Source: Chara braunii
Lineage: Eukaryota > Plantae > Charophyceae
DNA: 64,000 nt
Direction of reading: 5' to 3'
Assembly (NCBI GenBank): GCA_003427395.1
Contig: BFEA01000013.1
Location: forward strand, 6,745,038 to 6,809,037
Part shown: in pieces, positions 1-41,692 of the stretch
How positions within the stretch are numbered: position 1 is the first letter of the stretch
Layout: each line of letters begins with the position of its first letter
The notes under the pieces: generated by a model
Databases searched by the model: none
Seen by the model: only the letters and a program-made list of their open reading frames with translations
Told to the model about the DNA's origin: nothing
Position numbers and translations under genes: made by a program

Positions 1-922
1 TTCTTTGAGCAACATTGAATCTTGATCGTATTCGGCAAACACACTCCCTCCCTTCACCTCCATCCAGCTCATATGCAGTTAGCCGGTTCGTCTCCCTCAC
101 CCTCGTCAGTACCCATCTGCCCCCNCAGATCTCGAGGTGGCCTGGCCCAACCTTCAAACAGTTATCAAGAAAGATTCTTGGCAGCTATACGTTAACNGCC
201 CCGGTTCTTTCCCGCTTTCCCTTCAGTTCCGTGGGTCAACTCNTTTCCGGCCACCTCGGCCTGATCGTTGNGCGGGGCAGTGCTCTCGTGTCGTGGTTTT
301 CCCGGTATCGCCAGAGGTCCGGTCTTCAAGGCTCTATCCAGGTTCACGTGCATCTCTCTTGGGCGCGAGGACAAGATCTCGCCTTCAACCCCAAANATCG
401 TGCAGGCCAGTCGAACGATTTTCATCGGCAANCCATACGANAGGCTGGTAACCCAGCGTCCTTAAGCCCTCGCATGTTCCACNTCCCCGCATCGTTGATC
501 CATCTCCCGCCCGACATNTGTGCCCCTGACAACCCAACTTCTGCTCGTAGTCACACCCCGTTCGTGGCTCTTGCTACCCCACTGCAGCTCATAGCCAATG
601 TCCGGTGCCTTTCCTCGAACTCTCCATCCTAGGATCTCGATGGCCCCAGTCAAAGACCTGCCGCATCCGCCCTTCCCCTGACTTAAAGCCTTGAGAATGC
701 CAATTTTTGTAGTCCGTGCGACCCCACCTGTGGCCGCTGTCCTTGTCGCCTCCTCCGGTCGTCGGAGGGTTAGTATCAGTCAAACAAACTCAAACCCCCC
801 TTGAAACCCTTCATGCATATGCAACCACATATCGAAACCATGCAAAAAATCAGACAGGGAAGGTAATTTCTCTTTCCTTTTCTTTAACGAAGATCCCCTT
901 GCTGGCAGGCAGCCGCCCAACA
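1..922 (-). repeat. 3' LTR of element A (partial, truncated by window start)
   Basis: Begins TGTTGGGCGGCTGCC on minus at 922. Ungapped reverse complement of 21512-22433 (position i maps to 22434-i); similarity stops exactly at the TG. Confidence 0.9.
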
Positions 923-5474: not shown

Positions 5475-7571
5475 TTACAGAAGCGTGCACTGCATAGGCT
5501 GCATTAGGGTCCTCCGTAGGGGATCTACCGTGTCTATCTCATCCAAGGTGCATTTCATCTCGAACTTTCCCCCCCCCCTCTTCCTAGGTGATTTGGGTGA
5601 AGTGGGTTCCTCCTTCCTCTCTTCCGCACCTTTGGCGTCGACCATCGGTTGGTCGTCGTCGCCGCGCCTTCTTCCTCCATCTTCCGCCACGCTCTCCTTG
5701 CCCTTAGACGTCTCGGCCCCAACCTGGGTTCTCACCCTTAGGCAAGGCCCTTTCTTTTCAGGCTGGGTCTCAACGAACTTGATGCTCGACACCTGGGGTT
5801 CCCTAATGGACACCCCCCCTGCGGATTCTGTCATTTGTATATGGGACGAGTTGGAGGTACCCCCAACCTCGGTCTTCTTCCCCAGCCTTGCCTCCTGGAG
5901 GGCTATCCTCTTGTCCACATTCACCTTCATTGAGGGATAGAAGGAGACTGCTTCCCCATCATCTCCCCAAACTACCCACTTATTCTCGTTTAATTTCACT
6001 ACCCCCAACCTCAAGGCTTCTGTAAGGTAAGGGCACTCTCGTTTGATATGACCTTCCTCATTACAATAGACACACCCGCTTCGAGGCGGTGGGTTGTTCG
6101 AGCGGGGCGCGACTTGAGGTGGCGCTCCTGTCGCCGTGGGAGGCCCAGGAGGCGGTGGCGTTCTGGCCTGACTTACCTCCGATCGAGCACCCATGGCCCT
6201 AGGTTGGGGAGGGTCTCCCCATCTTCCATCCCTCGCATCCTTCCACCGGGAATTTCCCCACTCCGACGCTCGATTACCTCCGGCCTCTCGATCGGCCCTC
6301 CAACTCAGTTGATTGCCGGGTTCGTTCCTCCAACCCGGGGGTCCTCCTCCCCAACGCTGGGCGGGAGGCCCCGGAGGCTGCCTTTCGTTCCCACGAGGAC
6401 CGTCGCTCTTTTGCGAGCGCATACTCCGGAGTGCCATGTCCAGACTCTCCTTCATATATTCCCGTACGTCTACACCCCCTCCAGTGAAGACTACTTCGGC
6501 GACCCTTTCAAAATTAGCGGAGTCCCTAGGGGCCTTCTCGAGGACCTCCGAGTCCCTCCTCTTTTCTTCAGGCAGGTGCAGCATGAACATCACACACCTG
6601 TTGACTTCCGAAAGCATTCGTCTATCCACCAAGGCCTGGGACAAGCGTTTGAACCGTCGGGTAAAAGCCACCAGGCTTTCTTGTTCTCCTCTCGTCACCC
6701 GACGCAGCCCTTCTATCGTAGGGATCATGTCGTCACACGCAAAGATCCTCAGTAGGCTGCTTTTGAAGGTCTTCCACCTTCCATTAGACGGATATACGGC
6801 CCTGATGGCTTGGTCCAACTCGTGGTCAGAATGTTGTATGAAGTGGTCGATCCACTCTTTTTCCGAAATTTTTTTCCGATAGGCGTAACTTTCCCACTTT
6901 TCCACGAACCCGGTCACGTCCCTTCCGTTAAAGTAGAGCGACTCTAGTCCCAGGTTTACATCGTAATAAGGGACTCGGCGGTTGTAATATCGACGGAAGT
7001 ACGGTCCGTCGGCCGGCCCATCTGGCGCTGGATCGTAAGGTTTGTACCAGGAAGGGTCCAGATCTTCCATCCGGGGTCGATGTCTCGGAGGTCCCCATGG
7101 TTCCTCCTCCCTGCGACCCCCATAACCCGGGTCCTCGCGTTCCCAGTGCACGGACTCCGGGGCCCTGGCCCCCCTCCAGATATCTCTGGGTCCTCCCATA
7201 TTCCTGCCCACCGCCTCTTCTCGTACCCAAGCGGGACCGATCTCCCTGCTTGCCCATCTTCGCGGTCCTCCCCCAATCTCAATTGTCCGTCCGTCCCTAA
7301 GTTCCCTCCTCCTCGGGCCACCTTCCTCGCTCCTCCTTGGCGCCCAGCATCCAGCCCTGTCATGAGGGCACTCCTGCCCCTCGCTGATTCTCTCTTCCAC
7401 GTGGTCCGCCCATCGGGTTTTGACGGGGAACCCCCTCGTGGCTTCGGCCACCCTTTCTCTCATAGGGACACGTGGTTCCATTTCTCGGTGCAAACGCTCA
7501 TCCGAGCTTGTGCGTGGTTCCGTAGCTTTCTCTCCTATGGGTTCTTCCTGGCTTCTTAGGGCCCTGCCCAT
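5475..7571 (-). CDS. gag: Element A Gag (698-aa open segment; an upstream in-frame ATG at 7703 lies beyond two stops)
   Basis: YFNGRDVTGFVEKWE capsid-like region; zinc knuckle CVYCNEEGHIKREC; immediately upstream of PR. Confidence 0.9.
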   Translation of the reverse strand: MGRALRSQEEPIGEKATEPRTSSDERLHREMEPRVPMRERVAEATRGFPVKTRWADHVEERISEGQECPHDRAGCWAPRRSEEGGPRRRELRDGRTIEIGGGPRRWASREIGPAWVREEAVGRNMGGPRDIWRGARAPESVHWEREDPGYGGRREEEPWGPPRHRPRMEDLDPSWYKPYDPAPDGPADGPYFRRYYNRRVPYYDVNLGLESLYFNGRDVTGFVEKWESYAYRKKISEKEWIDHFIQHSDHELDQAIRAVYPSNGRWKTFKSSLLRIFACDDMIPTIEGLRRVTRGEQESLVAFTRRFKRLSQALVDRRMLSEVNRCVMFMLHLPEEKRRDSEVLEKAPRDSANFERVAEVVFTGGGVDVREYMKESLDMALRSMRSQKSDGPRGNERQPPGPPAQRWGGGPPGWRNEPGNQLSWRADREAGGNRASEWGNSRWKDARDGRWGDPPQPRAMGARSEVSQARTPPPPGPPTATGAPPQVAPRSNNPPPRSGCVYCNEEGHIKRECPYLTEALRLGVVKLNENKWVVWGDDGEAVSFYPSMKVNVDKRIALQEARLGKKTEVGGTSNSSHIQMTESAGGVSIREPQVSSIKFVETQPEKKGPCLRVRTQVGAETSKGKESVAEDGGRRRGDDDQPMVDAKGAEERKEEPTSPKSPRKRGGGKFEMKCTLDEIDTVDPLRRTLMQPMQCTLL

Positions 7572-7713
7572 AGCCTATACCCCTTCGGTCACTCCTTCGG
7601 TTGTCTTGCTCAATCTCGCCCCTAACTCGACGTCTTCCTCGGCTCACGCCATAGCGGTGGTCTTGGGAGATTGGGCTACCCCGTGCTCCACCACACTTTT
7701 CATGCACCAGTTC

Positions 7714-8570
7714 TCAGCCGCTCTCCTCACTAGAGTCACTCCCTTGGCTGGTCGTCCCACTACTCTCCTCCGAGCCTCTTCCTTCTTTACTCGATCCTTG
7801 TGTCTTACTATCCCCTTCGGACTCCTCGTTAGTCACCGTCCACCAAGAGTCCCGCAGTTTCTTCTCCTCGCTAGCGGCCAGCGCAAGATTGACAATCTCC
7901 AGGTCCGAAATGCCCCTAATCCCTTCTTGCGCGCACCGCCTAAGCAGGTCTCTATCCACCTCGCCGGCTTGTCCGGAGAATAGGGGTTTGATGAAATCAC
8001 CTACCAAAGCCCACCACTCAAAATCCGTGAGCTCTAGGGACTCCCAACACAGGATGAACAACTCGTGCCCCTTTTCTTCCCCCAGGGGGAATTTCTCAAT
8101 CACCGGTCCTCTAATTTGGACTCTCCTCACCGCTGCATCGTCAGGGTAGAGCAATCGGTAGACCCAAGCAGGGATCTTCCAGGTCCGGCTGTGGGCTGCC
8201 CGCGGGATCTCTAACCGTCCTCGGTATTCAATCCTTTCTATCTCTCGCCTTCCGGCCTCTCCTCCTCTCAACCTTCTCAGTCGGTCTCGGGTTCTCTCTG
8301 CGATACTCAGAGGGTCCTTTCCTTCTGCCAACTCCGTGGCAAAGAACTGCCTGTCGTCTGGAGACAAAAAGATCTCCGCCCTCCGCGTGTGGGTACCCTA
8401 TCTCGGAACTCTCGAAAAACGGACTAGTGTTTCCTGGCCGTATATTTTGAAGAATTCCATAGTGACCTCCCCTTCTTCCTCAACCCTAGGGAGGGTCACT
8501 CCATACCTAGTTCCCGTCTTCCAGGCCCTTTCCAAGGTTCCGATAGGGTCCCCCTATCGTACCTAATCAT
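7714..8570 (-). pseudogene. Accessory ORF beta-5 (unknown function; frameshift and stop near the 5' end)
   Basis: Starts MIRYDRG (compare beta-2 MILFDQG); RRAEIFLS and IPAWVYRLLYP...VRRV...HELFILCWES motifs shared with the other beta ORFs. Confidence 0.6.
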
Positions 8571-9055
8571 TGGCCGGCTCACCCTACTCGAGCCAATCTC
8601 TCCGCTGCCTCCACGAGCGAGTCCTCACACCTTCCTCGAGAGCCTTCGCCCTGCCCGAGAATCGTTCGATGCAATGTGTGCTCGGATTCACCCGACCTGT
8701 CCCAGAAGCGTGCCTCTACTAGGTGCACTCTGGCCTCGAGTGGGTTTCCAAGCCACTTCCTCAAACCTTCCCTCGACCTCTGACAGGGGTTCTCTCCACG
8801 TTCTAGAGAACCGCACTCCTCTTGCCCCCCTAATAGCGATTGAAAACCTCGCTAAGCGGCTAAGGTAGTCCAGAACCTCCTTTTCCACAGGGCCAGTCAC
8901 CGGACCTCGACGAGGAAGCTCTTCTCGGCCCTAACCTCTTGGTCCTCTCCAAGGCCTAGGCCGAGATTCGCTATTCCTACTACCTCGACTTCCGAGCCGT
9001 CGTCCTTTGTCTCCAACTCCCAATCTATCGAGCTCGAGGTATAGGTGGTTCTCAT
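8567..9055 (-). pseudogene. Accessory ORF gamma-2 (unknown function, frameshifted)
   Basis: ATG 9055 overlaps the gamma-1 stop (ATGA); MRTTYTSSSIDWELETKDDGSEVEVVGIANLG; fragments 8900-8688 and 8764-8579 lead to an ATGA at 8570. Confidence 0.4.
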
Positions 9056-9252
9056 GCGTCTCCTCCCCCGGAGAGTAGCTCCTCTTTTAAGTCATCTAGT
9101 ACCTTGACCACGACAGCCTCTAACAACTTGATCCTCCGCAAGGCTCTTGGCCTCGCCCTTCTTTCTTCTTCCCAGCAAAGGGCTAATATCCGATATAACT
9201 CTGCCCTAACCCTTTATAAACCCACTAGTTCACCGATGTCGGGCTCACTCAT
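9052..9252 (-). pseudogene. Accessory ORF gamma-1 (66 codons, one internal stop)
   Basis: MSEPDIGELVGL*RVRAELYRILALCWEEE...KVLDDLKEELLSGGGDA*; its start overlaps the beta-4 stop and its stop overlaps the gamma-2 start. Confidence 0.5.
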
Positions 9253-9991
9253 GCCTCAAATTCCTCCGTCGGCAAGCTATAGCTATCCGTATGAGATCCG
9301 ACGGGTCTAATCCTTCTAACCCTGCTTCACAGATTTTTCCCAGGTATCTCCAGGTGATGGTCGAGACCCTTACGTGTTGGCCCCAACCCTCAAAGGCNTA
9401 GCCCAGACCCTCTAATGATGACCAATTATCCTCGTATGGACTCTGAAGGCACCAGGTTAATAGGGAATGCAGGTCCGTCCTTGTGAACNGAAATTGGCTC
9501 AGNATCGCGATCCTAGGTCCTACCACCTTCCGAACTGCTTCCGAGGGATAAATCCGCTCAAGAATAAATNGAGGGACTCCGCCGGGGTCACTGTCGAAAA
9601 ACCTAGGTATCTCTTCCCAACCTGCGTAGGTCACTCGGCAGACCCTAGGGTATTCTTCTCGAGGACTCCCTTCTTCCATAAGCTTTTCTAAACGCTCTTG
9701 GATCGCCGGTGCGTCCACAAGCGGGTCCTCCCTTAATTTTAAATTGNGGACCACCTCCAGAAACCCTCCCTTAGAAAGGAACACTGTGGCCTCTCTGACT
9801 GCCAACCCTTCTCCGCTGCTCACCGTCGCCCGAACAAATACTCTCCCTCGGTGTATCTNTGCCACCTCCTTCCGAATGGCCCTTGTCGGGTCCCTCTGAC
9901 TTTCCTTGGGCAAGGAGACTTGGACAATTTCCCCCTCCTCACTCACAGGCTCTATGGAGGCCCAAAGAGTCTCGGGAACCCCCCTTATCAT
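9245..9991 (-). CDS. Accessory ORF beta-4 (248 aa, unknown function)
   Basis: Open frame with GRVFVRAT, REATVFLS, EEYPR, VPxFILERIYP...VRKVV...LHSLLTWC motifs; ATGA junction with beta-3. Confidence 0.7.
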   Translation of the reverse strand: MIRGVPETLWASIEPVSEEGEIVQVSLPKESQRDPTRAIRKEVAXIHRGRVFVRATVSSGEGLAVREATVFLSKGGFLEVVXNLKLREDPLVDAPAIQERLEKLMEEGSPREEYPRVCRVTYAGWEEIPRFFDSDPGGVPXFILERIYPSEAVRKVVGPRIAXLSQFXFTRTDLHSLLTWCLQSPYEDNWSSLEGLGXAFEGWGQHVRVSTITWRYLGKICEAGLEGLDPSDLIRIAIACRRRNLRHE

Positions 9992-10782
9992 CGGGCTTCG
10001 TACCCCCGCCGGTTAGCCACTTGCTCTTCCCTGAAGAGGCGGGCGTACGGGACGTCCACGACGTGAGCTCAGATCCCCTCAAACTCTCTTAATCTCTCAA
10101 GTATAGAGGACAGCTCCCCCCTCGGGGGAAACCCCGCGTCCACACACCGCGTATAGAGCCAGAATAACCCTGTCGTCCATACCCCAGAATCCCATGCGAC
10201 TTTAAGTACCGCTACCACCCTTTCCCCCGTGCGACTTTAAGTACCGCTACCACCGCGTATAGAGCCANAATAACCTTGTCGTCCATACCCCAGAATCCCG
10301 TCCTCCCCAGGAATGAGCGTACNAGGAATTGGGGCAGCTCCGCGTGGAGGACTCCGGACGCACGAGGGACCTCTCCAGGTTCGGTGAAGGACACCTGTGT
10401 CCACGACTCGAAGGTCCCCTCTTCGTAATCACCCAGTACCAGGCTGTTTGCTAACAACCTTGTGGACTCACGATACTCCGTANGGGCCTCTTGGCCTGTT
10501 ACTAATCCCCTCCACACTTCAGTCCACCTCGTTGAGGAAGATCGTAGCCCGAATCTCAAGGAAACGACCGAGGTCTGGCGGGCCTCCTCTTTGCACTCCT
10601 TCCTTCCAGGTGAGCCTGCGAGTTCGAACCCACACGTAGGCCCCTTCTCGGATGACTCCGCCTTTCTTAACGCTCATTCAATAAGGTGTCACGCGAGGGT
10701 CTCCCGGAATCAAGACTTTACCCGCGTCACTAGCCTCTACTGCCTCTACCACCCCGTTTTCACTGAGCACAAATCTCACCAT
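9988..10782 (-). pseudogene. Accessory ORF beta-3 (stops, frameshift and internal duplication)
   Basis: MVRFVLSENGVVEAVE..., GAYVWVR, RATIFLNE, LPQF, ALYAVCGRGVSPEGELSSILERL (compare beta-2 TLYTHCIDQGIPPRGKLWGIFRRL). Confidence 0.6.
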
Positions 10783-11446
10783 CTACCAACGCCGTTTTGA
10801 AAACCCACCGGCGGTATCTTTCCGGCGAGAGAGTAAAGGGTTCCTCTAGGGACCCCAATCTCCTAAAAATACCCCAAAGCTTCCCGCGTGGTGGGATACC
10901 CTGATCGATACAATGCGTGTACAGCGTCCACATGGCCCCAAAGGGTAATCCCAAACTCCTCCCTCTTTCCAGGAGTCTCACCACTCTTCCCTCACTCTCT
11001 CTTGAGAACACAAAGTTTGGGACCCACACGGTCACAGGGTAACTTGCCCTTGGGAGTTCACCTGCCCTGGCGAACCTCCCGGCTTTCAACGCCTCAAACT
11101 CGACCTCCTTTCGGACCCTATCTATCCACCTCCTCCTGACTTCTCGAGCCTCCCTGATTAACAAGTCCAGCCCACCCCCTTGGCCCAAGGCCAGGGTTAC
11201 GATAATCTTCGACCAAGCCTCCGACTTGACGAAGATNACCGAGGTGACTTTAAGCCGCANCTCCGCCGTTCTCTCCTCAGCCCCTTCCNATTCTATCCAC
11301 ACGAAATTACCTCCAGCCGTAATCTCCCCTCCTTCCAACCTTCTCCAATCGGGGATTCTCCCGTTGCTCGGAACCAGGCTACACACCCCTCGTTCTTCTA
11401 GAGGGGACTCGATGAACCTACCNACGCCCTGGTCAAATAGAATCAT
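10760..11446 (-). CDS. Accessory ORF beta-2 (228 aa, unknown function)
   Basis: Open frame; GNFVWIE, TSxIFVKSEAW, SYP...VPNFVFSR...RVVR...TLYTHC; ATG directly follows the beta-1 TGA. Confidence 0.7.
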   Translation of the reverse strand: MILFDQGXGRFIESPLEERGVCSLVPSNGRIPDWRRLEGGEITAGGNFVWIEXEGAEERTAEXRLKVTSXIFVKSEAWSKIIVTLALGQGGGLDLLIREAREVRRRWIDRVRKEVEFEALKAGRFARAGELPRASYPVTVWVPNFVFSRESEGRVVRLLERGRSLGLPFGAMWTLYTHCIDQGIPPRGKLWGIFRRLGSLEEPFTLSPERYRRWVFKTALVDGEICAQ

Positions 11447-12190
11447 TCATTCCACCCTTTGACGCACCCCAAACACCCTTTGGTATCGGTAGTCCCGTCC
11501 GCCCTCACGGTCTCTCTCCGACTCAAGAGAGATCCTCTCCCTGATCTGATCTGCCCTAACCCNGTACAGGANAGGGTTGTCCATGCAATAGGAATAGAAC
11601 TAGTGGAGCGAGCGAAAGGACAGGCCCCTCCTTCTCTCCCGCCTAGAAGACCTCACTACTTTTTCGTACGCGCCCCCTTCTCCANACACCCTCCTGAAGA
11701 CGTAAGAAGGGAAGATAGCCTGGACGCAACCCGCGGCTCGAGGATATTCCTCGTCCCGGGCGGAAGTCACCCGCAAGCAGAACGATAGACTATGCTGAAG
11801 GGGCACCTCCTCCAAGATCCGCCTCAGGATAGGTTCCGCGCGTAACTCCCAGTGGTCCNCCCGATACCACCCTAAGGGCCAGTGGGTGACGTACTCGACC
11901 CACNCCTCCCGACTTAGATAGACCGTGCCCTCAGCACGAACCGCCGCTCGCCGGGCCTTCCCCCNGTTCCTAGGTCTATTCCTAGTTTACCGATATCCTT
12001 CCCAAATGCCTACGGCGAATCGTGCCCAAAGAAAGACTCCCTTCTCAAGTTCCACCCCTCTCTCACGCCCCGCTAGGTATCTCTCCGTCCNATGATCCAA
12101 GGGGACACTAAAGCATTCTCGTTCTTTGAGAAGGTCTACCTTCTCGATCTTCACTCTGCCGTCTTCTCCGGCTTCTACAATCCTAACCAT
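11447..12190 (-). pseudogene. Accessory ORF beta-1 (247 codons, two premature stops)
   Basis: Track ORFs 12190-11987 and 11815-11600 share one frame, which ends QRVE* at 11447; GVFLWARF, EGTVYLSRExW, EEYPR...FPSYVFRR...KVVR...LH*FYSYC. Confidence 0.65.
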
Positions 12191-12554
12191 GCCCCTTCCG
12201 ACTTTGCACCACCTTCTTAATGACTCCTATCNATACCTTCCACCCGTCGCACCCGTCGAGATAGGCCTCCGGTATGATCGGGGCGGGCCTCTCACCTCGT
12301 CGGAAAGTACGGTAACCTAGAGTATAGAAATACCGGGTCTCGTAGGCCCCCAGAAGTTCCTTTTCTAGCCGCGCGAGGCCAACAACCTCCTCCCAACTAC
12401 TAAGAAACCCTTCTCCCAACGTCCCCTCTTCAACGTAGAGGGCGATGTCCCAATCTCCGGTCCATAGGAAGAACTTGTAGCACCACACGTCTACTCCCCC
12501 ACAGTCACCCACGCTGATGCCTCCTGGCTCAAATTCTAAAACCCGTACGCTCAT
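12183..12554 (-). CDS. Accessory ORF alpha-3 (123 aa)
   Basis: MSVRVLEFEPGG...VDVWCYKFFLWTGDWDIALYVEEG...YFYTLGYRTFRRGERPAPIIPEAYLDGCDGW; paralogue of alpha-1 and alpha-2. Confidence 0.75.
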   Translation of the reverse strand: MSVRVLEFEPGGISVGDCGGVDVWCYKFFLWTGDWDIALYVEEGTLGEGFLSSWEEVVGLARLEKELLGAYETRYFYTLGYRTFRRGERPAPIIPEAYLDGCDGWKVXIGVIKKVVQSRKGHG

Positions 12555-12914
12555 ATGTTCTTTACTATCTCCTCTATAATCGATACTAACACTCTCCACC
12601 CGTCTGACCCATCCAGATATGCTTCCGGTACAACCGGGGCGGGTTGCTCCCCTCGTCGGAAGACTCGGCACCCCAGCGTATAGAAATATTTGATCCCATA
12701 CCCTCCAACAAAACCCCCTCTCTAGCTGCGCATGGGCAACCGCTTCCTCCCAACTGTTTAGGAAGGCTTCTCCTTGGTCAGTCCCTTCTTTTACGTAAAG
12801 TGCTATATCGAAGTCCCCAGTCCACAGGTAAAAATTGTAGCACCACACATTTACACCCCCACGGCTTCCCCCGCTAATGCCTGCTGGTTCAAACTCCAGA
12901 ACCTCTAAGCTCAT
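12551..12914 (-). pseudogene. Accessory ORF alpha-2 (~120 aa, 1-nt frameshift)
   Basis: MSLEVLEFEPAG...LWTGDFDIALYVKEG; after the frameshift FYTLG...RRGEQPAPVVPEAYLDGSDGWRVLVSIIEEIVKNI*. Confidence 0.72.
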
Positions 12915-13264
12915 AGGCGCCCCACTATTTCTTCTATAATCTTGACTAATACTCTCCACCCATCGGACCCGTCGAGATAGGTGTCCGGAATCACCGGCGC
13001 AGGCCGACCGCCCCTAGGATAAGTTCGGTACCCTAAGGAGTAGAAGTAACTGAATCTGTACCCTCGCAGCTCACCTCTAGCCCCACGGGAGTCGTTGACC
13101 GCCGCCCCCCATCCGCGGAGGAAATTCTCTCCCTGGTCTCGCCCCTCTTCTACATAGATAGTCACATCAAAGTCTCCCGTCCACAGGCGGAAGGTATTGG
13201 ACCACACGTCGACCCACCCATAGCTTCTTACGCTAATCCATTCTGGGACTGCTGCTAGGCTCAT
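12911..13264 (-). CDS. Accessory ORF alpha-1 (117 aa)
   Basis: VDVWSNTFRLWTGDFDVTIYVEEG...YFYSLGYRTYPRGGRPAPVIPDTYLDGSDGWRVLV. Confidence 0.75.
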   Translation of the reverse strand: MSLAAVPEWISVRSYGWVDVWSNTFRLWTGDFDVTIYVEEGRDQGENFLRGWGAAVNDSRGARGELRGYRFSYFYSLGYRTYPRGGRPAPVIPDTYLDGSDGWRVLVKIIEEIVGRL

Positions 13265-13881
13265 TCACCCTAATCAACGAGATATAATTTTAGTCCTCCT
13301 TCACTATTTGGCCACTCGAGAGACCACCCCTACCCTGCAAGAAGAAGGTGTCTGTGAGCCCAGCAGGATCAAATGGACCAGAGAAGGAACGCCGTCTCAC
13401 TCGGCTACCTTCCTGTCCTCTTCCGCTGAGAGGTCCTTCCACTTCCAGGTATAAGGACTAGCTGCGAACACAGGTTATCCCCGAAGAAGGGTGACAACCC
13501 CTCCTCCGGAGTCGGACTGAAGTCACACACCCGTGCCCTACGTCCCCCACCAAACCGACCCCTAGTCCTAGTTAGCCTATCCGGTACCACGCCTCTACTC
13601 GGCCCACCTCAAGCGTGGAATTATCCGGGTCCCCGGACTCGATCCACCTATCGATCAGATATCACTAGCCTGTTTACTCCCTCCCGTTCTCCTTCTCGCA
13701 TCGCGAACCCTTCTCACTTCGATCCCTTCCTTCTTTTCGCCACCGGCTGACTCTTTTCTCTCTTAGAATCAAAGAATTAGATCGGGGTATCCGAAAAAAA
13801 AAGGGTGGGTAAGCAGAGATTTAGGAAGAGTCTCTCAGGTCAGGCAGATATATATACGCACCTGGTGGTTCTTGAGCCCTT

Positions 13882-14457
13882 TCAATATTCGTTTTCGTAG
13901 TCCCAATAATCCCCTAGGTCCGAGTCCGAGAAATCGGCGAGGCACCGGTCTACCCAAGACCCGTCCTCCGACCCCTCGTCCAAGGTACCCCACGTATCCC
14001 TAACCTCTTCTTCCCGAGGTAGTTCCNTATCCCCCTCGTTCANAACGNCACTTGAGGTTTCCTCGCCCNNTAGTCCCGGAGCCCGAAGCACCACTCTCCT
14101 TACCCCCAAGTCCCGAACGGTCTCCGCTTGAGAACTCCGCTCCCNAGGGGGANGCATGTCTCTCGCGGGCCCCGCACACAACCCTCGCGGGTCGAGAACC
14201 GAGAACCCAAAACCTTCCCGCGGAACCCTTTCCGGTGCGGAAGTTGTNCCTCGTGCGGGTGCCCTCCACAGTCCGTGCGGGTCGAGGATGTTTGGCGACC
14301 CCCTTGGATCCCAAATTGATAACGCTCTCAGATCCTCCCGAGTCCCCCTTTCCTCTCTCACCCTTGAGTCCACTCTCTCTCCCCCGTGTGCGGACCCTAT
14401 CACACTATTTTCCCTCATGGCTCTTCTTACCGCCCTTTGGTTGCTTTTCACCCTCAT
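13882..14457 (-). CDS. Possible leader ORF0 of element A (191 aa, acidic C-terminus)
   Basis: First long ATG ORF after the PBS on the element's sense strand; no recognisable domain. Confidence 0.3.
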   Translation of the reverse strand: MRVKSNQRAVRRAMRENSVIGSAHGGERVDSRVREERGTREDLRALSIWDPRGSPNILDPHGLWRAPARXTTSAPERVPREGFGFSVLDPRGLCAGPARDMXPPXERSSQAETVRDLGVRRVVLRAPGLXGEETSSXVXNEGDXELPREEEVRDTWGTLDEGSEDGSWVDRCLADFSDSDLGDYWDYENEY

Positions 14458-14953: not shown

Positions 14954-17167
14954 TGTCGGCTTGTCCTTCCCCCTGTTCCCCCGGTCTCGGATACCTGGGC
15001 CTCCAGGGGTCAGGGGCTTGTCTCTTTTCGACTCACTTTCCCGACCACCGCCTGATCCGCCTAGACTGCTTTTGGCAGCCCCTGAGCTCCCCTTCGTCAT
15101 GCCCCTTCTATGCACTTGCCCCGTCCCGGAACCGCGGCCCCGGTCGGACGTGAAAACCGCTTTCGAAACTCGAGTGGCTCTATCGGTTTGATCCCAGGCT
15201 TCGAGGGGCCGGAGTAACTTTCAGATCACAGGCCCCCCCCTTCGCTAGGCAGGCTAGTTCCTGCCCTGCAAGTCAGGTCACGCACAGACTGTTCNCGGAG
15301 TCTTCAGATTGAGATATCCAGACAACGAACAACCTGTTTCCGGGACNTCCGTCCAGGANTGACTTTCGGATTGCGAGAAGGACGNCCTCCTGGACTTCGG
15401 GTTTGGGCTGAAAGATAGATCGCAAACAGGCCAACTCCGGGGCTTTAGATTAGGACTGCCATTCCAGTCTGCGAGCAGATTGATTNCGGAACCCCAGAAT
15501 AAGTCCAATGCTCAGAGGGCGAACTAATGGAGCCCTCGACCAGGTAAGTATTCAAATNGTGGACAGACCNATCCCGGGTCTTCGGATCGGGACAGACCTT
15601 CTAGTTGCCAACTGTTTTGCCCCGAATTTCAGAATAAGACCGGTGCACATACNGAGTTGGGAATTTCAGATCAGGGATTGCATTCTAATAGCAGACAGAC
15701 TGGCTNCGNAACTTAGGAACGGGACCAACGCTCAGAAAGCGAATAGGTTGATTTCGAAACTTCAGAACAAGGNCAGNGCTCAGAGAGCGGATAGATTGAT
15801 TACGGAGCTTCTGAACAANACCTTGCGAACAGATTGACTCTGGAACTTTGGAACAGGACCTATTCTCAAAGAGCGAACAGATTGTCTCTGGAACTTCAGA
15901 ACATGGCCAACGCTCAGGGAGCAAACTGATTAATCCTGGAANCTTAGAACCAGACCAACTCTCAAAGANCGAACAGACNTACCCCCGAATTTCAGAATAA
16001 GACTTATGCACATAGCGAGAACAGACGGAGTCGGGAATTTCAGATCGGTGCTTGCATACTAATAGCAGACAGACTGACTCCGGAGCTCCGGGTTGGGACT
16101 GACATTCAAGTTGCGAACAAATCGACTCCAGAACTTAGGAACGAGACCAACGCTCAGAGAGCGAATGGGTTGATTCCGAAAATTCAGAACAAGACCAGCG
16201 CTCAAAGAGCGAATAGATTGACTCCAGAACTTCTGAACAAGACCAACGCTCCAGGAGCAAACAGATTGATTCCAGAACTCCAGAACAAGACCTTTGCGAA
16301 AAGATTGACTCTGGAACTTTGGAACATGACCAACTCTCAGAGAACGAACAAACTTTCTCCCGTATTTCAGAATAAGACCTATACACACAGCGAGATCAGA
16401 CAGAGTCGGGAATTTCAGTAGGCCAAGAGCGACTAGCACCTCCCCACTCGACAACTCTCTCCTTCGTCTCCCCGCATGGTCTTCTTCCACACCCTTTCCC
16501 TTTCTACCTTCCTGCCCCTCCCTCTCTCTCTCTCTCTCTCCGTGAGGGAGTTTTGACCAAGAACTTCGAAGGATGCGACTCCTAGTTTAGCCCGTCGAAG
16601 TTAGAGCGAGATAATACCCCACGACGACGCACAACCCCAAACCAAAGTAACGAGGTCGCCCAAACGAAGGCTTGGATTATAATGAAGTCGCCCAAACGAG
16701 GTTAGCTCGAGAGAAAGGGCCGCTGTAGAGGCGGCTTAATAGGTGAAGCGCAAGCGAAGTGACACCGCGAGGCGACAAAGGGGCTCAATTGTAGCGGCTC
16801 GAAAGGAGAAGCCCGCGCGAGGAAAAGCCTCGGCTTGGCCGGCTTAGTTCACGCGCGGAGTTGCCCCCTGGCCCGACCGAGGTGCCCGTTTGAGGAACCG
16901 CAGCCGAAGTGAAAGCTGCTGCGAACAAGCCGACTCGGTCAAGGGAGCACTGCGAAGCTCTTACCCGGCACAAGGGGCGTACCCGACCCCCCCTTTTTTA
17001 TCTTTCTCTCCCTCTCTTCCTCGCCCTTACTCTCTCTCGAGCTTTCTCGTACTGACGGCTTCTCTTCCCCCTCCCTCTCCGCTCTCTCTCCTTCTCTAGT
17101 CGCCTATGGCCGCGCTTCACCATCACTCCACATCTCCCCTTTCCCCTCTCTCATAGATTATGGTCGC
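14954..17167 (-). repeat. 3' portion of the element A 5' LTR
   Basis: Ends ...CCGACA, the inverse of the LTR start TGTCGG, and is followed by the PBS. Its GA-rich start continues the GA-rich LTR portion ending at ~23513. Confidence 0.7.
15300..16420. repeat. Degenerate tandem repeat array inside the element A LTR (~45-50 bp units, ~370 bp higher-order period)
   Basis: Recurring CAGAACAAGACCAACGCTCAGAGAGCGAATAGATTGACTCC-like unit; ATTTCAGAATAAGAC block recurs near 15625, 15990 and 16365. Confidence 0.8.
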
Positions 17168-17290
17168 CCAGTACTATAACGTCTCCTAGTGCGTGAACTT
17201 TTCCTAATCGAAATGCGACGTTTGGAAAAATGACAAACGTCGCATTTCGATTAGGAAAAGTTCACGCACTAGGAGACGTTATAGTACTGG
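17168..17290. repeat. Perfect 57-bp inverted repeat with 9-nt loop (fold-back inversion junction)
   Basis: 17168-17224 is the exact reverse complement of 17234-17290; loop GAAAAATGA. Confidence 0.95.
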
Positions 17291-19620
17291 ATTTGAACAC
17301 ATATGATGTCCTTCTGGGATTACCATCCCTCACAGCATTGCAGGCGAACCTGGATTTCGAGAGGCGATCCGTCATCCTTCGAAACACGGGCGGAAACGAT
17401 GCGGCTGACTCTTCGGACCATGCCGTCCTTGACTCAGAAACCCCCGACTGGAATCAGAGGACCCCTCCGAGTGATCATCTGGAAAGAACCAATCCACGAA
17501 TCGGATCAAAGAGGAAAGGAATTAAAACTAACGAGTGACTCTAACAGTGGAGACGAAGCCGATCCTGTGATACACGAGATGGTTCAACCGCTGATTCATT
17601 ACCATGTCCGATAGAAGACCACGAAAACGTTCGTCCTTACGGAAAGAAATCTACAACGAACACGTGCGTTAATCTTATGGGAACCACTCGTACAAATATC
17701 ACGGATGCTCGACTCTTTGAAACCCCATCGGACCCTATACAAAGCCACTGCTCCGCTTCACTCGAGATATAAAGACAAGGGAGCCTTTTGTGACATCTCA
17801 GGGCTACCTCGTTCCTTGCTGTCTTCCGGAAAGGAGGTGCGATTACTACGGTAGGGGGCCGAAGGCGAAGCTTTGGAACCCCTTGGACGCGACGACTCTA
17901 CACTCTATGAGCTCGGAATCAAAATCGTCGAGAAACCAGTATGCTGGCAGGATATCAGCGATGGCGTGACCCCGGAAGAATACGTGGCCATCCGAGAGGA
18001 GGATGCTCAAATGGTCGCCACCATGTTTTCCTGGCGGACAGACAACTCCTTCATCTCTGGCCCCCCTTTGGAGAGCAGCCCCAGAGTAGCCACGAAGCAC
18101 GTGACGGTTACCATACATGGACAACCCTACGAGCTACATGTGCCTCAGTTTGTACCCAATGAAACTCATCGATTGATTGCGGATATTCTGACCGAATACC
18201 AAGGGAGAATCAGTGTGACAGATACGGATATCGGATTGTCCTTAGTCATTCAACACAAAATTCAGACCGGAACGCACCCGCCGATCCACTGTAACCATAC
18301 CGATGTTCTCTCGCGGAACGAAAAGTGGCATTGCAAAGAATCAGAGAATTTGAGGCTAACGGATGGATCGAACCGGCAACCGGACCCTGGTCGTTTCCCA
18401 TGGTCTTAGTCCCGAAGAAAAATGGGTCGATTCGCATTTGCATTGATTACAGGAAGCTGAATGATATCACGATTAAGGATATGTACCCCCTTCCCCGGAT
18501 TGATGATCTATTGGATGCGATTGGGTGTGCTAAGTATTTTAGTAAGTTTGATATTTGTCATGGATTTCATCATATTCTGGTCAAGGAGGAGGATCGACCG
18601 AAAACGGCCTTTGTGTTATTCGAGGGCACTTGGTAGTGGGTCCGTTGCCCGATGGGAATCTGCAATGCGCCAACTACTTTTCAAAGAGCGATGAACGTCA
18701 CATTTCAAAATTTAGTCAACAAGACTAGACTAACTCAGGGCATGGTTAATTTCTGCATCATTGTGTACATGGACGACATCCTGGTCTACTCGGAATCATT
18801 CCACGGGCATGCACAACATGTTGAATGGACACTTTGGGCGTTGAAGGATGTTGGCTTCAAAATTGCGTTGGAGAAAAGTGAGTTTTTCCTTTCGGAAATC
18901 TCGTCCTTGGGGTACGTGGTGACCCAGTGAGGCTTACGAACGGATTCGAGAAAGGTCGCGGTCATTCGGGATGCCCCTACACCGACGACGTTGACACAAG
19001 TCCGGGCCTTGTTGGGACTGGCCTCGTACTATCGTTGATTTATCAAGGGTTTTGCAGCAATCACCTGGCCTCTGACGAATCTTATTCGGAAGGACCAACC
19101 GTTGAGTTGGGATGCCAAGTGTGAACGGCCCTTTGTCACCTTAAAGGAGGCTTTGGCCACGACACCTATTTTGATTCGGCCTGATCCAGGGAAGCAGTTC
19201 ATACTCATTACGGGCTGGCAGCCTTAAGCAATCTCTGCTATTTTGGCTCAGAAGGGGAAAGACGAACTCAAACACGTCATCGAGTACACTTCGCGAAGGG
19301 TACCGGACGACAGAAGAAACGATTCGGCTCCTCAGGGAGAGTGCTACGCGGTTGTATGGGGGATTCAACACCTCCATCCGTATTTGTACGGATAAAAGTT
19401 CCTCCTCGTTACGGATCATGAGCCCCTGCTGGCTCTCAAGAGGCTTACCAACTACACGGACATGATTGGACAATGGACTGTGCGACTGCAAGAATACGAT
19501 TTCGATATCGTCCACCGGAAGACAGAGAAGCACGGCAACGCCGACGGACTTACACGATTGTATCGGCCTAGCAGGGTGGTCAAGGGTGAAGAGATCACAC
19601 CGTGGAAGGAACCGTTGTAG
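17222..19620 (+). pseudogene. pol: Element B2 pol fragment (protease C-half, spacer, RT, RNase H); no integrase follows
   Basis: YDVLLGLP, VPKKNGSIRICIDYRKLND, YPLPRIDDLL, IVYMDDILVY, RH motifs ECYAVVWG / VTDHEPL; collinear with B1 from ~39880 to 43930. Confidence 0.93.
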
Positions 19621-21511: not shown

Positions 21512-23422
21512 TGTCGGGCGGCTGCCTACCAACTGAGGGATCTTCGTTAAAGAAAAGGAATGAGAAATTACCTTCCCTGTCTGTTTTTTTGCATGGTTTC
21601 GATATGTGGTTGCATATGCCTGAAGGGTTTCAAGGGGGGTTTGAGTTTGTTTGACCGATACTAAGCCTCCGACGACCAGAGGAGGCGACAAGGACAGCGG
21701 CCACAGGTGGGGTCGCACGAACTACAAAAATTGGCATTCTCAAGGCTTTAAGTAAGAGGAAGGGCGGATGCGGCAGGTCTTTGACTGGGGCCATCGAGAT
21801 CCTAGGATGGAGAGTTCGAGGAAAGGCACCGGACATTGGCTATGAGCTGCAGTGGGGTAGCAAGAGCCACGAACGGGGTGTGACTACGAGCAGAAGTTGG
21901 GTTGTCAGGGGCACANATGTCGGGCGGGAGATGGATCAACGATGCGGGGANGTGGAACATGCGAGGGCTTAAGGACGCTGGGTTACCAGCCTNTCGTATG
22001 GNTTGCCGATGAAAATCGTTCGACTGGCCTGCACGATNTTTGGGGTTGAAGGCGAGATCTTGTCCTCGCGCCCAAGAGAGATGCACGTGAACCTGGATAG
22101 AGCCTTGAAGACCGGACCTCTGGCGATACCGGGAAAACCACGACACGAGAGCACTGCCCCGCNCAACGATCAGGCCGAGGTGGCCGGAAANGAGTTGACC
22201 CACGGAACTGAAGGGAAAGCGGGAAAGAACCGGGGCNGTTAACGTATAGCTGCCAAGAATCTTTCTTGATAACTGTTTGAAGGTTGGGCCAGGCCACCTC
22301 GAGATCTGNGGGGGCAGATGGGTACTGACGAGGGTGAGGGAGACGAACCGGCTAACTGCATATGAGCTGGATGGAGGTGAAGGGAGGGAGTGTGTTTGCC
22401 GAATACAATCAAGATTCAGTGTTGCTCAAAAAACAAAGAGGATGCGAACGGGAGGAGTGCGCTACGATCGCAAATCGTTCGGGACGAAGGGGCTGGAGTG
22501 CGTGCCGCGACGAGAATCTATCAGGGCAAGGGGCCTTGCCAGGTACGCGGCCCCACGCGGCCAACAAAAATGTGGGGGAACCGGACGAAAGAAAGAAGGG
22601 ATGCTGAGAGGGAGAAAAGGCGGGGGTTTCGTCTACTGAAACGAGAAAGAGAGCGGGAACGCGAGTGAGGGCGTGGCTACGAAAAGAGGGAACGCACGAA
22701 CAGATTCGCAAATGAGCGGGAGATGAAAAAATTGTTAAGACAAGCCGCGGGACGTCGGAAGGGAATTGAGAGCGAGAAGGGTGCAAAGTGATTGGAGAAG
22801 AAGGAGGGAGGGAGGATTGATCAGGGAAGGTTGGGAGGAAAACGGAGAGTAAAAAAAGAGGAAGGGTCCCTTTCTTGGAGAGGGAGAGGAGGAAGGAGCA
22901 TANNNNNNNNNNNNNNNNNNNNNNNNNNNNNNNNNNNNNNNNNNNNNNNNNNNNNNNNNNNNNNNNNNNNNNNNNNNNNNNNNNNNNNNNNNNNNNNNNN
23001 NNNNNNNNNNNNNNNNNNNNNNNNNNNNNNNNNNNNNNNNNNNNNNNNNNNNNNNNNNNNNNNNNNNNNNNNNNNNNNNNNNNNNNNNNNNNNNNNNNNN
23101 NNNNNNNNNNNNNNNNNNNNNNNNNNNNNNNNNNNNNNNNNNNNNNNNNNNNNNNNNNNNNNNNNNNNNNNNNNNNNNNNNNNNNNNNNNNNNNNNNNNN
23201 NNNNNNNNNNNNNNNNNNNNNNNNNNNNNNNNNNNNNNNNNNNNNNNNNNNNNNNNNNNNNNNNNNNNNNNNNNNNNNNNNNNNNNNNNNNNNNNNNNNN
23301 NNNNNNNNNNNNNNNNNNNNNNNNNNNNNNNNNNNNNNNNNNNNNNNNNNNNNNNNNNNNNNNNNNNNNNNNNNNNNNNNNNNNNNNNNNNNNNNNNNNN
23401 NNNNNNNNNNNNNNNNNNNNNN

Positions 23423-23513: not shown

Positions 23514-23807
23514 GACGTTGTTATCGATTCGGGAGCCGCGGTACTGGCTATTTCATTGAGAGTCGTTGAACGAGCAGGAAGAGGAAGGATCTGATCACCT
23601 TGATGGAAAGAGATCATCTCGTCTCAGTGGACGAAGAGAAAATCAAAGGGGTTGGAAAAATGACAAACGTCGCATTTCGATTAGGAAAAGTTCACGCACT
23701 AGGAGACGTTATAGTACTGGATTTGAACACATATGATGTCCTTCTGGGATTACCATCCCTCACAGCCATGCAGGCGAACCTGGATTTCGAGAGGCGATCC
23801 GTCATCC
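23514..23807 (+). pseudogene. Inverted B2 protease fragment
   Basis: VVIDSGAAVLAISLRVVERAGR active site; 23652-23807 duplicates 17222-17377 almost exactly. Confidence 0.9.
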
Positions 23808-35446: not shown

Positions 35447-37160
35447 TGTCACGAACCAATTTCTGTCCCGCGCGACTTTCTGCACAAAGACAATGAGGGG
35501 TCCTAAGTTGGCAAGGTTGGGCCAATTACGGGAGATTGGGATGGATGAGAAATTGCATTGGTGTCCTCGCTTCCTCGTCCTTTTGCATCGGTTCCTTTTA
35601 GATGACTAGGTTCGGCCCCGGGCAGGTCCCGGGATGATCGATTGGTTGATTGGCTGTGTGAATGGCGCACCGCTGCGCGCGATTAAGGGATGTTGACGTC
35701 GCTTCTTTTGTTTCGGTTTTCGGATTTTAGGCACGGAAATCGCACGGGAATTTTGCTTCGTTCTTTTTGAATTTTCTTTTTGAATCTTTTTTCAACTCTT
35801 TTCAAATCCTGATGGCTCTCGGAATTTCGGACTTTCTTTTCAGAGTTTGTGTTTTTTGCTTTTCCGCATTAAATAAGAATTTTGCAATTAGGATTTTCTT
35901 TTGCCACACGACGTTTTTTGCTTACGCGCTTCTTTGTGCGGCTGCAATGGAACTCTGATTAGTCGGCGCTTTTAATCGTGTGTGTAACTGTAATTTTGGG
36001 CGGACGCCATTGTAACTGTATCTTTCTTCTTAGACTTCGTCTTTCCCACTTTCGCTTTCTTCTTGCTGGTCTAGCAGCCCGCGGGCTGCATGATCGGATC
36101 GATGCGTGGAGAGAGGCTGCATCCCCCACGCCGCGGTCTGGCCATGCAGAACGTAGGTGCTTTCTCCCTTGATCTCTTTCGAAGTCCTTGCAGTTCCGTG
36201 TTCTTCTCGCATGCATGCACGCTACAAATTTCGGCTTCGTGATTAGATAGCTCTTTTAACCAGCTAGTGGGAACTCAGGGTCGCGCGATCAGTGAGGGTC
36301 GACTCACGAGCGAAGTAAGAGGTGAGTGAAGTGGGAGTCGGGTGACCCGACGAGCTGGTGCCGAACGCGCGGATTTGACGCGCGCCACGACGGACTGTGG
36401 GTGCGGGCGAACCTGACGGGTGCGGGAGGACTAAGCGGGGTGACGACTTCATGGGTTGGTGCGTGACGACGAACTGTCCGCATCGGAGAGAGAGAGAGAG
36501 GAAGAGGGAGTTGAGGTTGATGAACGTGGATTTGCAGCTTTCTTTGTCTTGTCTCCCTCTCTGCTTTTGTATATAAATTTTGATCTCAGCTCAGGGCGAT
36601 TTGCCCGATTTTCTTTGTTTTTTCGGAATCTTGATTTGGTTCTGGCCCACACTCGTTTTTGCAATTTCGATCCCGGTTATTGTGTGTTATGTTGAATGAA
36701 TGGATGAATGGATGTTATGTCTACTTGCTTTTCCTTGTACCTAATCTTTGCTTTTGCTTGTCGTTTTGATTCACTAATGAGCATAGTAGGAAAGTTCACG
36801 TGATCCTCACTATTGATGTTTGTCCTCTTTTGATCTACCATTGTTGCTGCGAATGAGTGGTAGCAGCTTGCGTATTCAGGAGTGTTTGCATGAGATGATT
36901 CGGTAGTTGTTTGTCCAAAAATAAGCAAATACCTCGCGGGGATGCGTATAAGCGCGATCTGATCTGCGCACTTCCACGTGCCCACGCGCGTCGATTCGTA
37001 ACCACCCGCGCATGACAAGGCTAACGATCGCAGGGATATTGACTGATTGGATGTGTTCGGTGACCATTCTGGATCTGCAAGGAAGCCATCATCCCGTGTG
37101 AAGACGTGTACGCGCAATCCAGTTCGCGCAGTCTACACGTACTCACACGCGGTGATCACA
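35447..37160 (+). repeat. B1 5' LTR
   Basis: TGTCACGAACC...GGTGATCACA; collinear with 47881-49613; TATATAAA near 36570. Confidence 0.9.
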
Positions 37161-38025
37161 ATCGTCGAATATCGGGACCGACACGAAATTTCTGAACGCC
37201 GAGCTCAAAAATTCCCCAGCCGTGCGGCCACGCGCTAAGGAATTTTGCGGCTTCACAATGACAAGATGACGGACTCGAGGGACTCAGACTCGTCGTGGGA
37301 CCCGGAGTACTTCACCCCTTGGATTGAAGAGTGCCTCCAACGGAGGTTCCCCTGCTTAACCGAGAATCGACTGTGTCCTAATGAGTTCCATTGTGCCACA
37401 ACCAGCGATCCATGATGCCCTGATTTCCCCACTTCGGACTACACACACTACTCTATTTCCCTCGGTTTCGTCGTTATCTCCACTAACTTCCCTCCTTCCG
37501 TCTTCTTCTCCCGTATCATCAACTCACGGTCGTCCCGTGGAACGCCATAGCCCCATACTAGCCCCACACGACCTGTGAAAATTGTCGGCGGTGCGGCAAC
37601 GAAAGAGCCCCGAAAACCCGAAGATCTAACCCGAACGTGCGACGACCGGTGCCACGTGGCGACATCCGACGGCCTGACTCATCAGAATCACTCACACCCC
37701 GGATGGACCTTTCGTTGAACCGTCGTCCTCAAAACAGACGGTTCGAACGACCTTGAATGACCCGCGCATGCCATCTGCCTTATGACCGGAAGTGGTCCGC
37801 CCTCTCAACCAAATTGCACTCGTGCCCACGAAAAACTCGGCCACAGGAGATCCCAGTTCTGACCTGGGACTCCACCCCCACTTTCCCAAAAATCCTTGGC
37901 ACACCCTTTTCGCACTTCCAGGCCCATCTCCTACTCCGAACAGGAAGTCGCGCTGGGCGTGAGGTTGGTATCGGATCCCGACACGTGGTCGGGTTGTAGG
38001 ATTAACCACACGATAATTAAACGAT

Positions 38026-39700: not shown

Positions 39701-41562
39701 GTGACATTGAGGTTTGGGGAATTCCATACAATGCTATCATTGATTCAGGAGCTGCTGTTTTGGCTATCTCGCTACGAGTAGTTGAAAGAGCAGGGAGAAA
39801 GAACGATCTGATCATGCTCACTGAAAAAGATCAGCTCGTCTCAGCGGACGAAGAAAAGATCGAAACGGTCGAACGAATGACTAATGTTGCCTTTCGATTA
39901 GGGAAAGTGCACGCTTTGGGCGATGTCGTGGTCCTGGATGTTAATACCGACGATGTTTTTTTGGGTCTTCCCGCCCTTAGAGCGCTGCGAGCCAATCTGG
40001 ATTTTGAAAGACGATCGATTATCCTCCGAAACACAGGAGGAAAACCCTACGTAGTGCCGATGAGACTGACTCTGCGAACCACGACTAATGTAGCCACACG
40101 AGTGTCCTCTGTGATGACAGGGGCTCTCCGCGTGATTACCTGGGTCAACGGGCAGACATCCGAGGACGCAGAAAGTAGTGACGACGATGACGGTCCCGTA
40201 ATTTTGGAAATGGTACGAGAACGTATTTATTACCCCGTGCAGCGAACGAACGACAAAGTCCCGAGCAAAACTAACCAAGATTTACAGAGAACACAGACGA
40301 TGATTATGGGAGAACCTCTCGTACAGATTTTGAGGATGGTCGACTCTTTGGTACCCCCTCAAACCCTGTACGAAGGGATCTCCCCTCTCCTCGCCCGATA
40401 TAATGACAAAAGACACTACTGCGATATCACAGATCTCCCGAAGTCCCTGTTGACACCCGCAAAAGAAGTTCGATTGTTACGATTGGGGGCAGAGATCAAC
40501 TCTTTGGAACCCCCTGAGCGCCTCGAAAGTGGACTCGGGATCAAGATCGCAACCAAACATGTGTTGTGGCAAGACATTCGAGACGGGGTCACACCGGAAG
40601 AACACGTGGCCATCCGAGAATAGGATGCACAGATGATGGCCACGGTGTTTTCCTGGCGATCGGATAACTCGTTTATCTCTGCGCCCCCGCCGGAGAACAT
40701 TAAGCGGACAAACACCAAATACATCGATGTAAGAATATGGGGTAAGCCCTACGAGTTGCACGTGCCCCAATACATGCCTGATGAGATCCATCACTTGATC
40801 CCGGACATTCTGAAAGAATATAAAGACGCGATTAGTGTGACAGACACAGATATTGGGCTGTCGCTAGTCATACAACACGAGATTCAGACAGGAAATCATT
40901 CCCCAATTCACTGCAAACCGTATAGATATTCGCTGATGGAACGAAAAAAGGCTCTCGAACGGATTCGAGAATTCGAAGCAAGAGATGGATTGAACCCGCC
41001 ACCGGACCTTGGTCATTCCCAGTAGTATTGGTACCAAAAAAGAATGGATCGATTCGCATATGCATCGATTATCGCAAGTTCAATGACATCACGATCAAAG
41101 ATGTGTATCTCCTTCCCCGGATTGATGATTTGATGGATGCAATTGGGTGTGCTAATTATTTCAGTAAGTTTGATATCCGTCATGGCTTCCATCACATTCT
41201 GGTTAAGGAGGAAGATCGGCCAAAGACAACCTTTGTATTGTTTGAAGGCACGTGGCAATGGGTTCCTATGTGTCCGAAATCGGATTCAACGGGGGTTTTG
41301 AGTTGAGCAGTTCAACTCCCGTTCAACTCCCGTTTCAACTCCACGTTGAACCGAGTTGAACGTGGTACAACTTGGCCCGCGGATTTTTTTTTTTTGCAGG
41401 CAAAACATAAGTGAAAACAAAAACAAAAACATATGGGGGTGTAGATTGTTTTGCTCTCTACATCCCCATATTTTTATTTTTATTTTTTAAGAATCAAAAT
41501 TATTTAAAAAAAATCAAAAACAAAACTAGACTCAAAATAGATTTTTTTTTTTTTCCTTTTTT

Positions 41563-41566
<4 letters not shown>

Positions 41567-41638
<72 letters not shown>
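41567..41638. repeat. (GATT)n microsatellite
   Basis: Direct observation. Confidence 0.95.
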
Positions 41639-41641
<3 letters not shown>

Positions 41642-41692
41642 GGGGGATGGGGGATGGCATGGGCATGGACCCGGATTGGAATGATGGATTGA

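Follow-up and report, generated by a model that had tools for sequence, protein, structure and literature searches.

Upstream of gag, a long terminal repeat (LTR) retrotransposon of the charophyte alga Chara braunii carries an array of ten small genes in which AUG codons other than the starts are strongly, though not fully, depleted. The element lies in a stretch of 64,000 nucleotides (nt) of assembly GCA_003427395.1 (contig BFEA01000013.1, positions 6,745,038 to 6,809,037; hereafter the window, in which position 1 is the first letter). We propose, at about an even chance of being right, that several of these genes are translated from one RNA by leaky scanning of the kind used by badnaviruses. 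Ten open reading frames (ORFs) on the minus strand tile 5543 of the 5561 nt at 7704-13264, up to the gag ATG (7703), and comprise three alpha paralogues, five beta paralogues, and gamma1 and gamma2. An earlier note on this DNA, made from the sequence alone, had given their order on this one strand as alpha1-alpha2-alpha3-beta1-beta2-beta3-beta4-gamma1-gamma2-beta5-gag, and this order was confirmed; the nine junction strings that it listed and the gag-frame ATG at 7703 were likewise found exactly where it had placed them. In the direction of reading, the genes are as follows (L002 is a contig from a sister copy):

12911 to 13264, minus strand: alpha1, 117 amino acids (aa), open; gene model P0007 has the same start Met and 77% identity over 71 aa
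12551 to 12914, minus strand: alpha2, about 120 aa, with one frameshift near 12720; both halves match alpha1/alpha3 at 58-71%
12183 to 12554, minus strand: alpha3, 123 aa, open
11447 to 12190, minus strand: beta1, 247 codons with 2 in-frame stops; resembles beta2 and beta4
10760 to 11446, minus strand: beta2, 228 aa, open
9988 to 10782, minus strand: beta3, with about 4 breaks, one of them an internal duplication of 49 bp (10145-10193/10251-10299); pieces match beta2 and beta1
9245 to 9991, minus strand: beta4, 248 aa, open; 3' half 67% identical to L002
9052 to 9252, minus strand: gamma1, 66 codons with one stop in the window; 62 aa and open in L002
8579 to 9055, minus strand: gamma2, broken in the window; 158 aa and open in L002
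7714 to 8570, minus strand: beta5, about 285 codons, broken in the window by one stop and one frameshift; its tail is acidic (Ser/Glu)

Pairwise identity among alpha1-3 is 52-71%. In a small all-against-all search, the beta proteins were connected through beta1 and beta2 (E 2e-7), beta2 and beta3 (1e-8), beta4 and beta5 (7e-12), and beta1 and beta4 (5e-4), and in comparisons within the array gamma1 and gamma2 resembled neither each other nor any alpha or beta protein. The copy is decayed, as the earlier note had recognized: alpha1, alpha3, beta2, and beta4 are open, and the other six (alpha2, beta1, beta3, gamma1, gamma2, and beta5) are broken. By eye we counted about 13 breaks across the array; gag-pol, 6.4 kb long, has about 11, a similar density, so decay has gone no further in the array than in the core genes. 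The starts at 13264, 9252, 9055, 8570, and 7703 are independently backed by sister proteins or sister DNA. In both the window (8581-8567) and L002 (1097-1111), gamma2 is closed by two in-frame stops four codons apart, the second of which overlaps the beta5 start; the gamma2/beta5 junction, previously described, with less certainty, as an ATGA at 8570-8567, is really an 8-nt gap after the stop at 8581-8579, and the sister has the same gap.

The array is a family-wide trait and not a peculiarity of the window copy. The reverse transcriptase (RT) of the window element is 84-88% identical to that of 13 C. braunii gene models (74 of the 86 RT matches are named C. braunii), and array sequence also occurs in six of the 13 closest RT-bearing models. 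Three predicted gene models (P0002, P0006, and P0088) start at the beta5 Met and read through both break points of the window copy; P0007 and P0009, which support the alpha1 and gag starts, are predicted models as well. Two DNA runs from one sample, which may be the source of the window itself, yielded 1540 and 1624 contigs over all 30 bins of 6400-9488 and 1355 and 1343 over all 30 bins of 11966-14026, mostly 85-95% identical to the window. More distant sister DNA consists of two contigs, L001 and L002, that overlap by 395 nt without mismatch. L002 has 65% identity to the window and runs in the same order from the 3' half of beta4 through gamma1 and gamma2 into the 5' half of beta5, with all these frames open; its beta5 begins at the same Met as in the window, and the frame runs through the window's break points. 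L001 carries most of beta5 (with one stop) and the start of gag, which in L001 and P0009 is the same ATG as in the window (7703). On the test of premature stops suggested in the earlier note, sister copies keep open frames that are broken here. For a variable number of alpha copies the sole hint comes from short-sided joints, each in a single contig, and we do not claim it.

The array genes are under purifying selection. Between window and sister, the ratio of nonsynonymous to synonymous substitution rates (dN/dS; Nei-Gojobori estimates near saturation, of which the direction is firm and the values are rough) was 0.05-0.12, or dS was saturated, for beta4, gamma1, gamma2, and beta5 (gamma1, 0.12; beta5, 0.05-0.11; 3' half of beta4, saturated), lower than the 0.21 of the gag N terminus. 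Between alpha paralogues it was 0.06-0.16 or saturated (alpha3 versus alpha2, 0.06-0.08), so that the per-ORF comparison suggested in the earlier note gives values far below 1 wherever they could be estimated. The 63 coding variants listed, beyond which there are 834 further variants, divide into synonymous and nonsynonymous changes as 7 and 13 in alpha, 4 and 9 (plus 1 at a stop) in beta, 1 and 7 in gamma, and 10 and 11 in gag; since these are mostly private changes of the window copy, their classing is uninformative on selection.

Depletion of AUG is conserved in the window and its sisters. Six array ORFs of the window have 4 internal Met in 1236 codons, compared to 38 in 1518 for gag-pol (Fisher P 9e-7); of all residues, Met has the lowest ratio of array to gag-pol (0.13, followed by Asn at 0.40), and Leu, Ile, and Phe are not reduced. 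The sister gene models have 2 internal Met in 1121 codons, versus 38 in 1200 in their own pol parts, counts that are not independent because four of the six models are beta5 relatives, and the sister DNA of L001/L002 has none in 661 codons. The depletion extends to other frames. On the sense strand of the window array there are 34 ATGs where 62 are expected (z -4.9), with no depletion in the antisense control or in gag-pol; the window beta genes have 5 out-of-frame ATGs versus 13.6 expected (2/1000), and the sister DNA has 9 versus 16.9 expected (3 of 2000 synonymous shuffles), with none within gamma1 and gamma2. Much of what remains in the window looks like recent decay, because each of the 11 internal ATGs in alpha is private to its own paralogue (five face ACG) and, among the 42 array variants listed, 4 of the 16 internal ATGs in the stretches compared differ in sister contigs (0.65 expected) versus none of the eight start ATGs; no variant listed gains an ATG. 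The context of the starts is only suggestive of weakness, with a pyrimidine at -3 in 9 of the 11 window starts and 8 of the 10 array starts (P 0.015).

Relatives of the window copy are transcribed at a low level. Of three RNA runs, X5 and X7 gave 0 reads, which counts as no test; in the third, of 101-nt reads at low depth and with the gag-beta5 and beta1-leader stretches treated separately, 98 reads fell on gag-beta5, almost all of them sense for a usual stranded library, and 90 on beta1-leader. We ascribe these reads to relatives because nearly all (94/98 and 87/90) are less than 95% identical to the window.

We favor leaky scanning because it requires the purging of both in-frame and out-of-frame AUGs, which neither reinitiation nor one-gene mRNAs do, and because badnaviruses and chlorophyte bicistrons pair AUG depletion with leaky scanning. 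In such a scheme, a capped RNA transcribed from the 5' LTR, perhaps minus a leader intron, would load 40S subunits ahead of alpha1; each start would capture a share of them, and the remaining subunits would scan on through an AUG-poor cistron to the next. Most of the AUGs left in the sister start ORFs of 1-18 codons, beyond which scanning could resume. The array itself may have expanded by tandem duplication of alpha and beta units. Abundant Gag, from the eleventh gene in line, would depend on a shunt or on an RNA that is shorter or spliced.

Several observations weigh against leaky scanning. Ten starts over 5.5 kb far exceed the 900 nt described for rice tungro bacilliform virus (RTBV; PMC5902531). 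Out-of-frame ATGs are not depleted in the window alpha genes (8 versus 8.1 expected), and the sister beta5 keeps seven, one in common with the window, of which six open ORFs of at most 18 codons. A purine stands at -3 in two of the three sister array starts, with G in gamma1 and gamma2. RNA reads are missing over gamma1/gamma2, alpha2, and part of alpha1, and among the 188 reads, at this low depth, none represents a transcript spanning two genes. Finally, close spacing of stop and start is kept though scanning does not need it. As a separate observation, an internal ATG of beta5 that opens a two-codon ORF is common to the window (8504) and L002 (1175), copies that are only 65% identical.

This spacing brings in the alternative of the earlier note, in which a polycistronic RNA is read by termination-reinitiation at AUGA-type overlaps; more generally, reinitiation at each junction could be driven by a TURBS-like element or a transactivator like the caulimovirus TAV. 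In the window an ATG lies within -5 to +3 of the stop at 7 of the 10 junctions; with alpha-alpha junctions counted once, 6 of 9 lie in this range (P ~0.005 at the ATG density of gag-pol), and 9 of 9 lie within -21 to +13 (P ~0.002, for a range fitted to the data). In the sister, beta4 and gamma1 overlap by 20 nt, and gaps of 4, 8, and 19 nt separate gamma1 from gamma2, gamma2 from beta5 (identical to the window), and beta5 from gag. Hence, the expectation that junctions persist in relatives holds for proximity (4 of 4 within 20 nt) and fails for the ATGA stop-start (0 of 4): closeness is conserved, and the exact AUGA motif is not. The sister spacing falls within the range that PMC10275272 gives for TURBS reinitiation, and SART1 offers a precedent for reinitiation in a retrotransposon (PMC10275272; PMC5902531). 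Yet reinitiation alone needs no purging of Met or out-of-frame AUGs, and that purging is the strongest signal in the data. The core motif of TURBS is UGGGA. It occurs within 100 nt of only 2 of the 11 window starts, which equals background, and of none of the four sister starts. With ATGA unconserved, the TURBS core missing, and AUG depletion pointing to scanning, AUGA-based reinitiation is not supported in the form first put forward, and we consider reinitiation at every junction rather unlikely.

Nested spliced or subgenomic mRNAs issuing from a donor in the leader, each mono- or oligocistronic and read by scanning or reinitiation over short distances, would fit the donor-like and acceptor-like sites that flank a leader segment common to many relatives, as well as the patchy RNA coverage, and gag needs some such route. 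Nevertheless, no RNA joint was seen in the 188 reads (a search of low power across the two separate stretches), CAG is rarer than expected on the sense strand, the starts are preceded by ordinary pyrimidine tracts (8-15 of 19, versus 13 for the leader site), and selection against internal Met would not arise from strictly monocistronic RNAs. We regard this route, too, as improbable for the array as a whole; leaky scanning, reinitiation, and nested spliced RNAs may also combine. The idea that the array is a captured passenger, nonfunctional or decayed (for example, a viral or bacterial operon), with ORFs that the element does not use, is largely refuted and in our judgment very improbable. The roughly 13 breaks, the lack of protein evidence for the array ORFs, and the low Atlas recognition scores of the alpha and beta5 queries would suit it; against this, breaks in gag-pol are of similar density, the frames are open in a sister only 65% identical, dN/dS (0.05-0.16 or dS saturated) is below that of the gag N terminus, the 1540 and 1624 contigs span all 30 bins of 6400-9488, and our searches found no viral or prokaryotic relative.

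No array protein had a relative outside the Chara family in the databases searched. For beta4 there was nothing outside the family in 5.8 billion proteins; an alpha profile had 0 matches in 1.84 billion representatives, and a beta profile had 2, both beta5 relatives. None of the ten ORFs matched Pfam at cut-off, none of eight proteins matched PHROGs, the best match to PDB sequences had an E of 0.43, and viral and metagenome contigs searched with alpha gave nothing outside the family. The ESM Atlas returned none for alpha1 and no score above 0.78 for part of beta5. Structure prediction with AlphaFold was of low quality (pLDDT 45 and 44), and a Foldseek search with the beta model gave nothing at an E of 0.001 or better; because the models are so weak, we claim no fold. 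No transmembrane segment was detected (maximum 19-residue hydropathy of ≤1.37 in all array segments), which, with the position of the array before gag and not after pol, does not fit an env-like accessory ORF. Our tentative view, drawn from sequence, is that the alpha, beta, and gamma proteins are soluble and lineage restricted, with host interaction (counter-silencing or RNA binding) as their most likely role; duplication and divergence under purifying selection suggest a part in host conflict, and transposon-encoded anti-silencing proteins offer an analogy. It is equally tentative to speculate that the element has evolved a virus-like mRNA of ten cistrons, on which a scanning chain across 5.5 kb of AUG-poor genes doses an expandable arsenal of new protein families against host silencing.

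The remainder of the element, as far as it could be delimited, comprises the following:

5475 to 7703, minus strand: gag, with Retrotrans_gag and zf-CCHC matches below Pfam cut-offs and two stops in the first 45 codons
1295 to 5474, minus strand: pol, decayed, with protease (PR), RT, ribonuclease H (RH), and integrase (IN) in that order and matches to RVT_1, RT_RNaseH, Integrase_H2C2, and rve
1 to 922, minus strand: 3' LTR, extending past the window edge, 98% identical to a second copy at 21512-22433
13335 to 13861, minus strand: candidate leader intron, predicted from a GT resembling a donor (13861) and an AG resembling an acceptor (ending at 13335)
13307 to 13620, minus strand: leader segment common to many related elements, with a contig depth about 10 times that of the array
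13882 to 14457, minus strand: ORF-U, putative, 191 codons, with no Pfam match

The succession of gag and PR-RT-RH-IN identifies the element by sequence as a Ty3/gypsy LTR retrotransposon, and the PR region of its pol matches sister models bearing aspartic-protease domains. Excluding the 3' LTR it measures at least 16 kb, which makes it large but not "giant" as first described; for the latter term PMC6431247 gives a criterion of 20 kb of internal region. The sole other LTR copy (21512 onward) is inverted, lies past a fold-back at 17168-17224 and beside a gap, and has all nine N positions in common with the 3' LTR. For these reasons the 5' end is probably locally misassembled, which would hide the 5' LTR, and LTR identity is therefore unusable for dating the insertion. 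The fold-back is a perfect one of 57 bp; together with a 156-bp duplication at 99% identity it flanks the segment with the inverted LTR (17168-17377 and 23652-23807). A primer-binding site was looked for in the window and not located, and Rfam gave only sub-threshold miRNA matches, on the fold-back artefact. Leader segments 13307-13620 and 13898-13966 both have about 10 times the contig depth of the array, and folding of 13307-13620 was not significant (z -1.26). At 13307, 11-12 contigs quit the alignment, as if related families put another first gene behind the leader. ORF-U ends 20 nt before the donor-like site, with its 3' end in a high-depth bin, and could be an additional first cistron; degenerate 48-bp tandem repeats occupy 15400-16420 in the 5' region of the element. 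Elsewhere in the window there are further related pol-like segments (17675-19612 and 40304-43933), a 1.7-kb direct repeat at 92% identity (35447-37161 and 47881-49614) that is probably the LTR pair of another element, and satellite-like arrays at 50017-53400, 54720-54918, and 56530-57040 with units of 41/53, 91, 26, and 65 bp.

It is rare for a nuclear RNA of a eukaryote to give more than two proteins. LTR elements in the reviews consulted carry one or two extra ORFs, and in plant LTR elements the extra ORFs mostly follow pol (PMC7264820). The earlier note knew of no LTR element with such an architecture, and none with a comparable array was found in the literature searched, save that the Chara genome paper or its supplements may describe the family. 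If leaky scanning does run through the whole array, the chain would far exceed in length the leaky-scanning units found in that literature. A high-copy family with ten selected cistrons provides a natural test of the reach of scanning and reinitiation in a plant-lineage cell, its new protein families under purifying selection are candidate factors in transposon-host conflict in an alga closely related to land plants, and the array is possibly a compact design for multi-gene expression.

Among known systems, the Ogre/Tat elements resemble the Chara element in being large, of the Ty3/gypsy type, and equipped with extra ORFs whose function is unknown. They differ in having one or two such ORFs (PMC6431247), compared to ten in Chara, and usually an additional aRNH domain (PMC4408406), which was not detected here, where only RT_RNaseH families matched among the pol segments scanned. 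Burro of planarians and the Terminons of rotifers are also oversized retroelements with accessory coding capacity; Burro, however, has an upstream ORF and a single polyprotein, about 5000 aa long, that contains its domains, and Terminons, which have many accessory ORFs, are Penelope-like, lack LTRs, and carry recognizable enzymes (PMC6431247). Calicivirus TURBS and SART1 share with the array a stop and start that overlap or lie within 20 nt, but have a single junction on each RNA and depend on an RNA element, whereas the array has no TURBS core and its overlaps are unconserved. Bicistronic nuclear genes of chlorophytes combine depletion of start codons before the downstream ORF with leaky scanning (PMC11291117), although these are host genes, mostly of two ORFs, and not parts of a mobile element. 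In badnaviruses, ORFs 1-3 are joined by ATGA overlaps, have no internal AUG, and are translated by leaky scanning (PMC5799344; PMC5902531). No sequence similarity to badnaviruses was found, and membership of Caulimoviridae is ruled out by the rve and Integrase_H2C2 matches in the window element. Nevertheless, badnaviruses and RTBV share reverse transcription with the Chara element and, like it, set small ORFs free of internal AUG (in Chara, strongly depleted of it) and ATGA overlaps before a Gag/PR/RT/RH gene; they do so with two upstream ORFs over about 900 nt and with neither integrase nor LTR, whereas the Chara element has ten ORFs in paralogous series over 5.5 kb, together with an integrase and an LTR.

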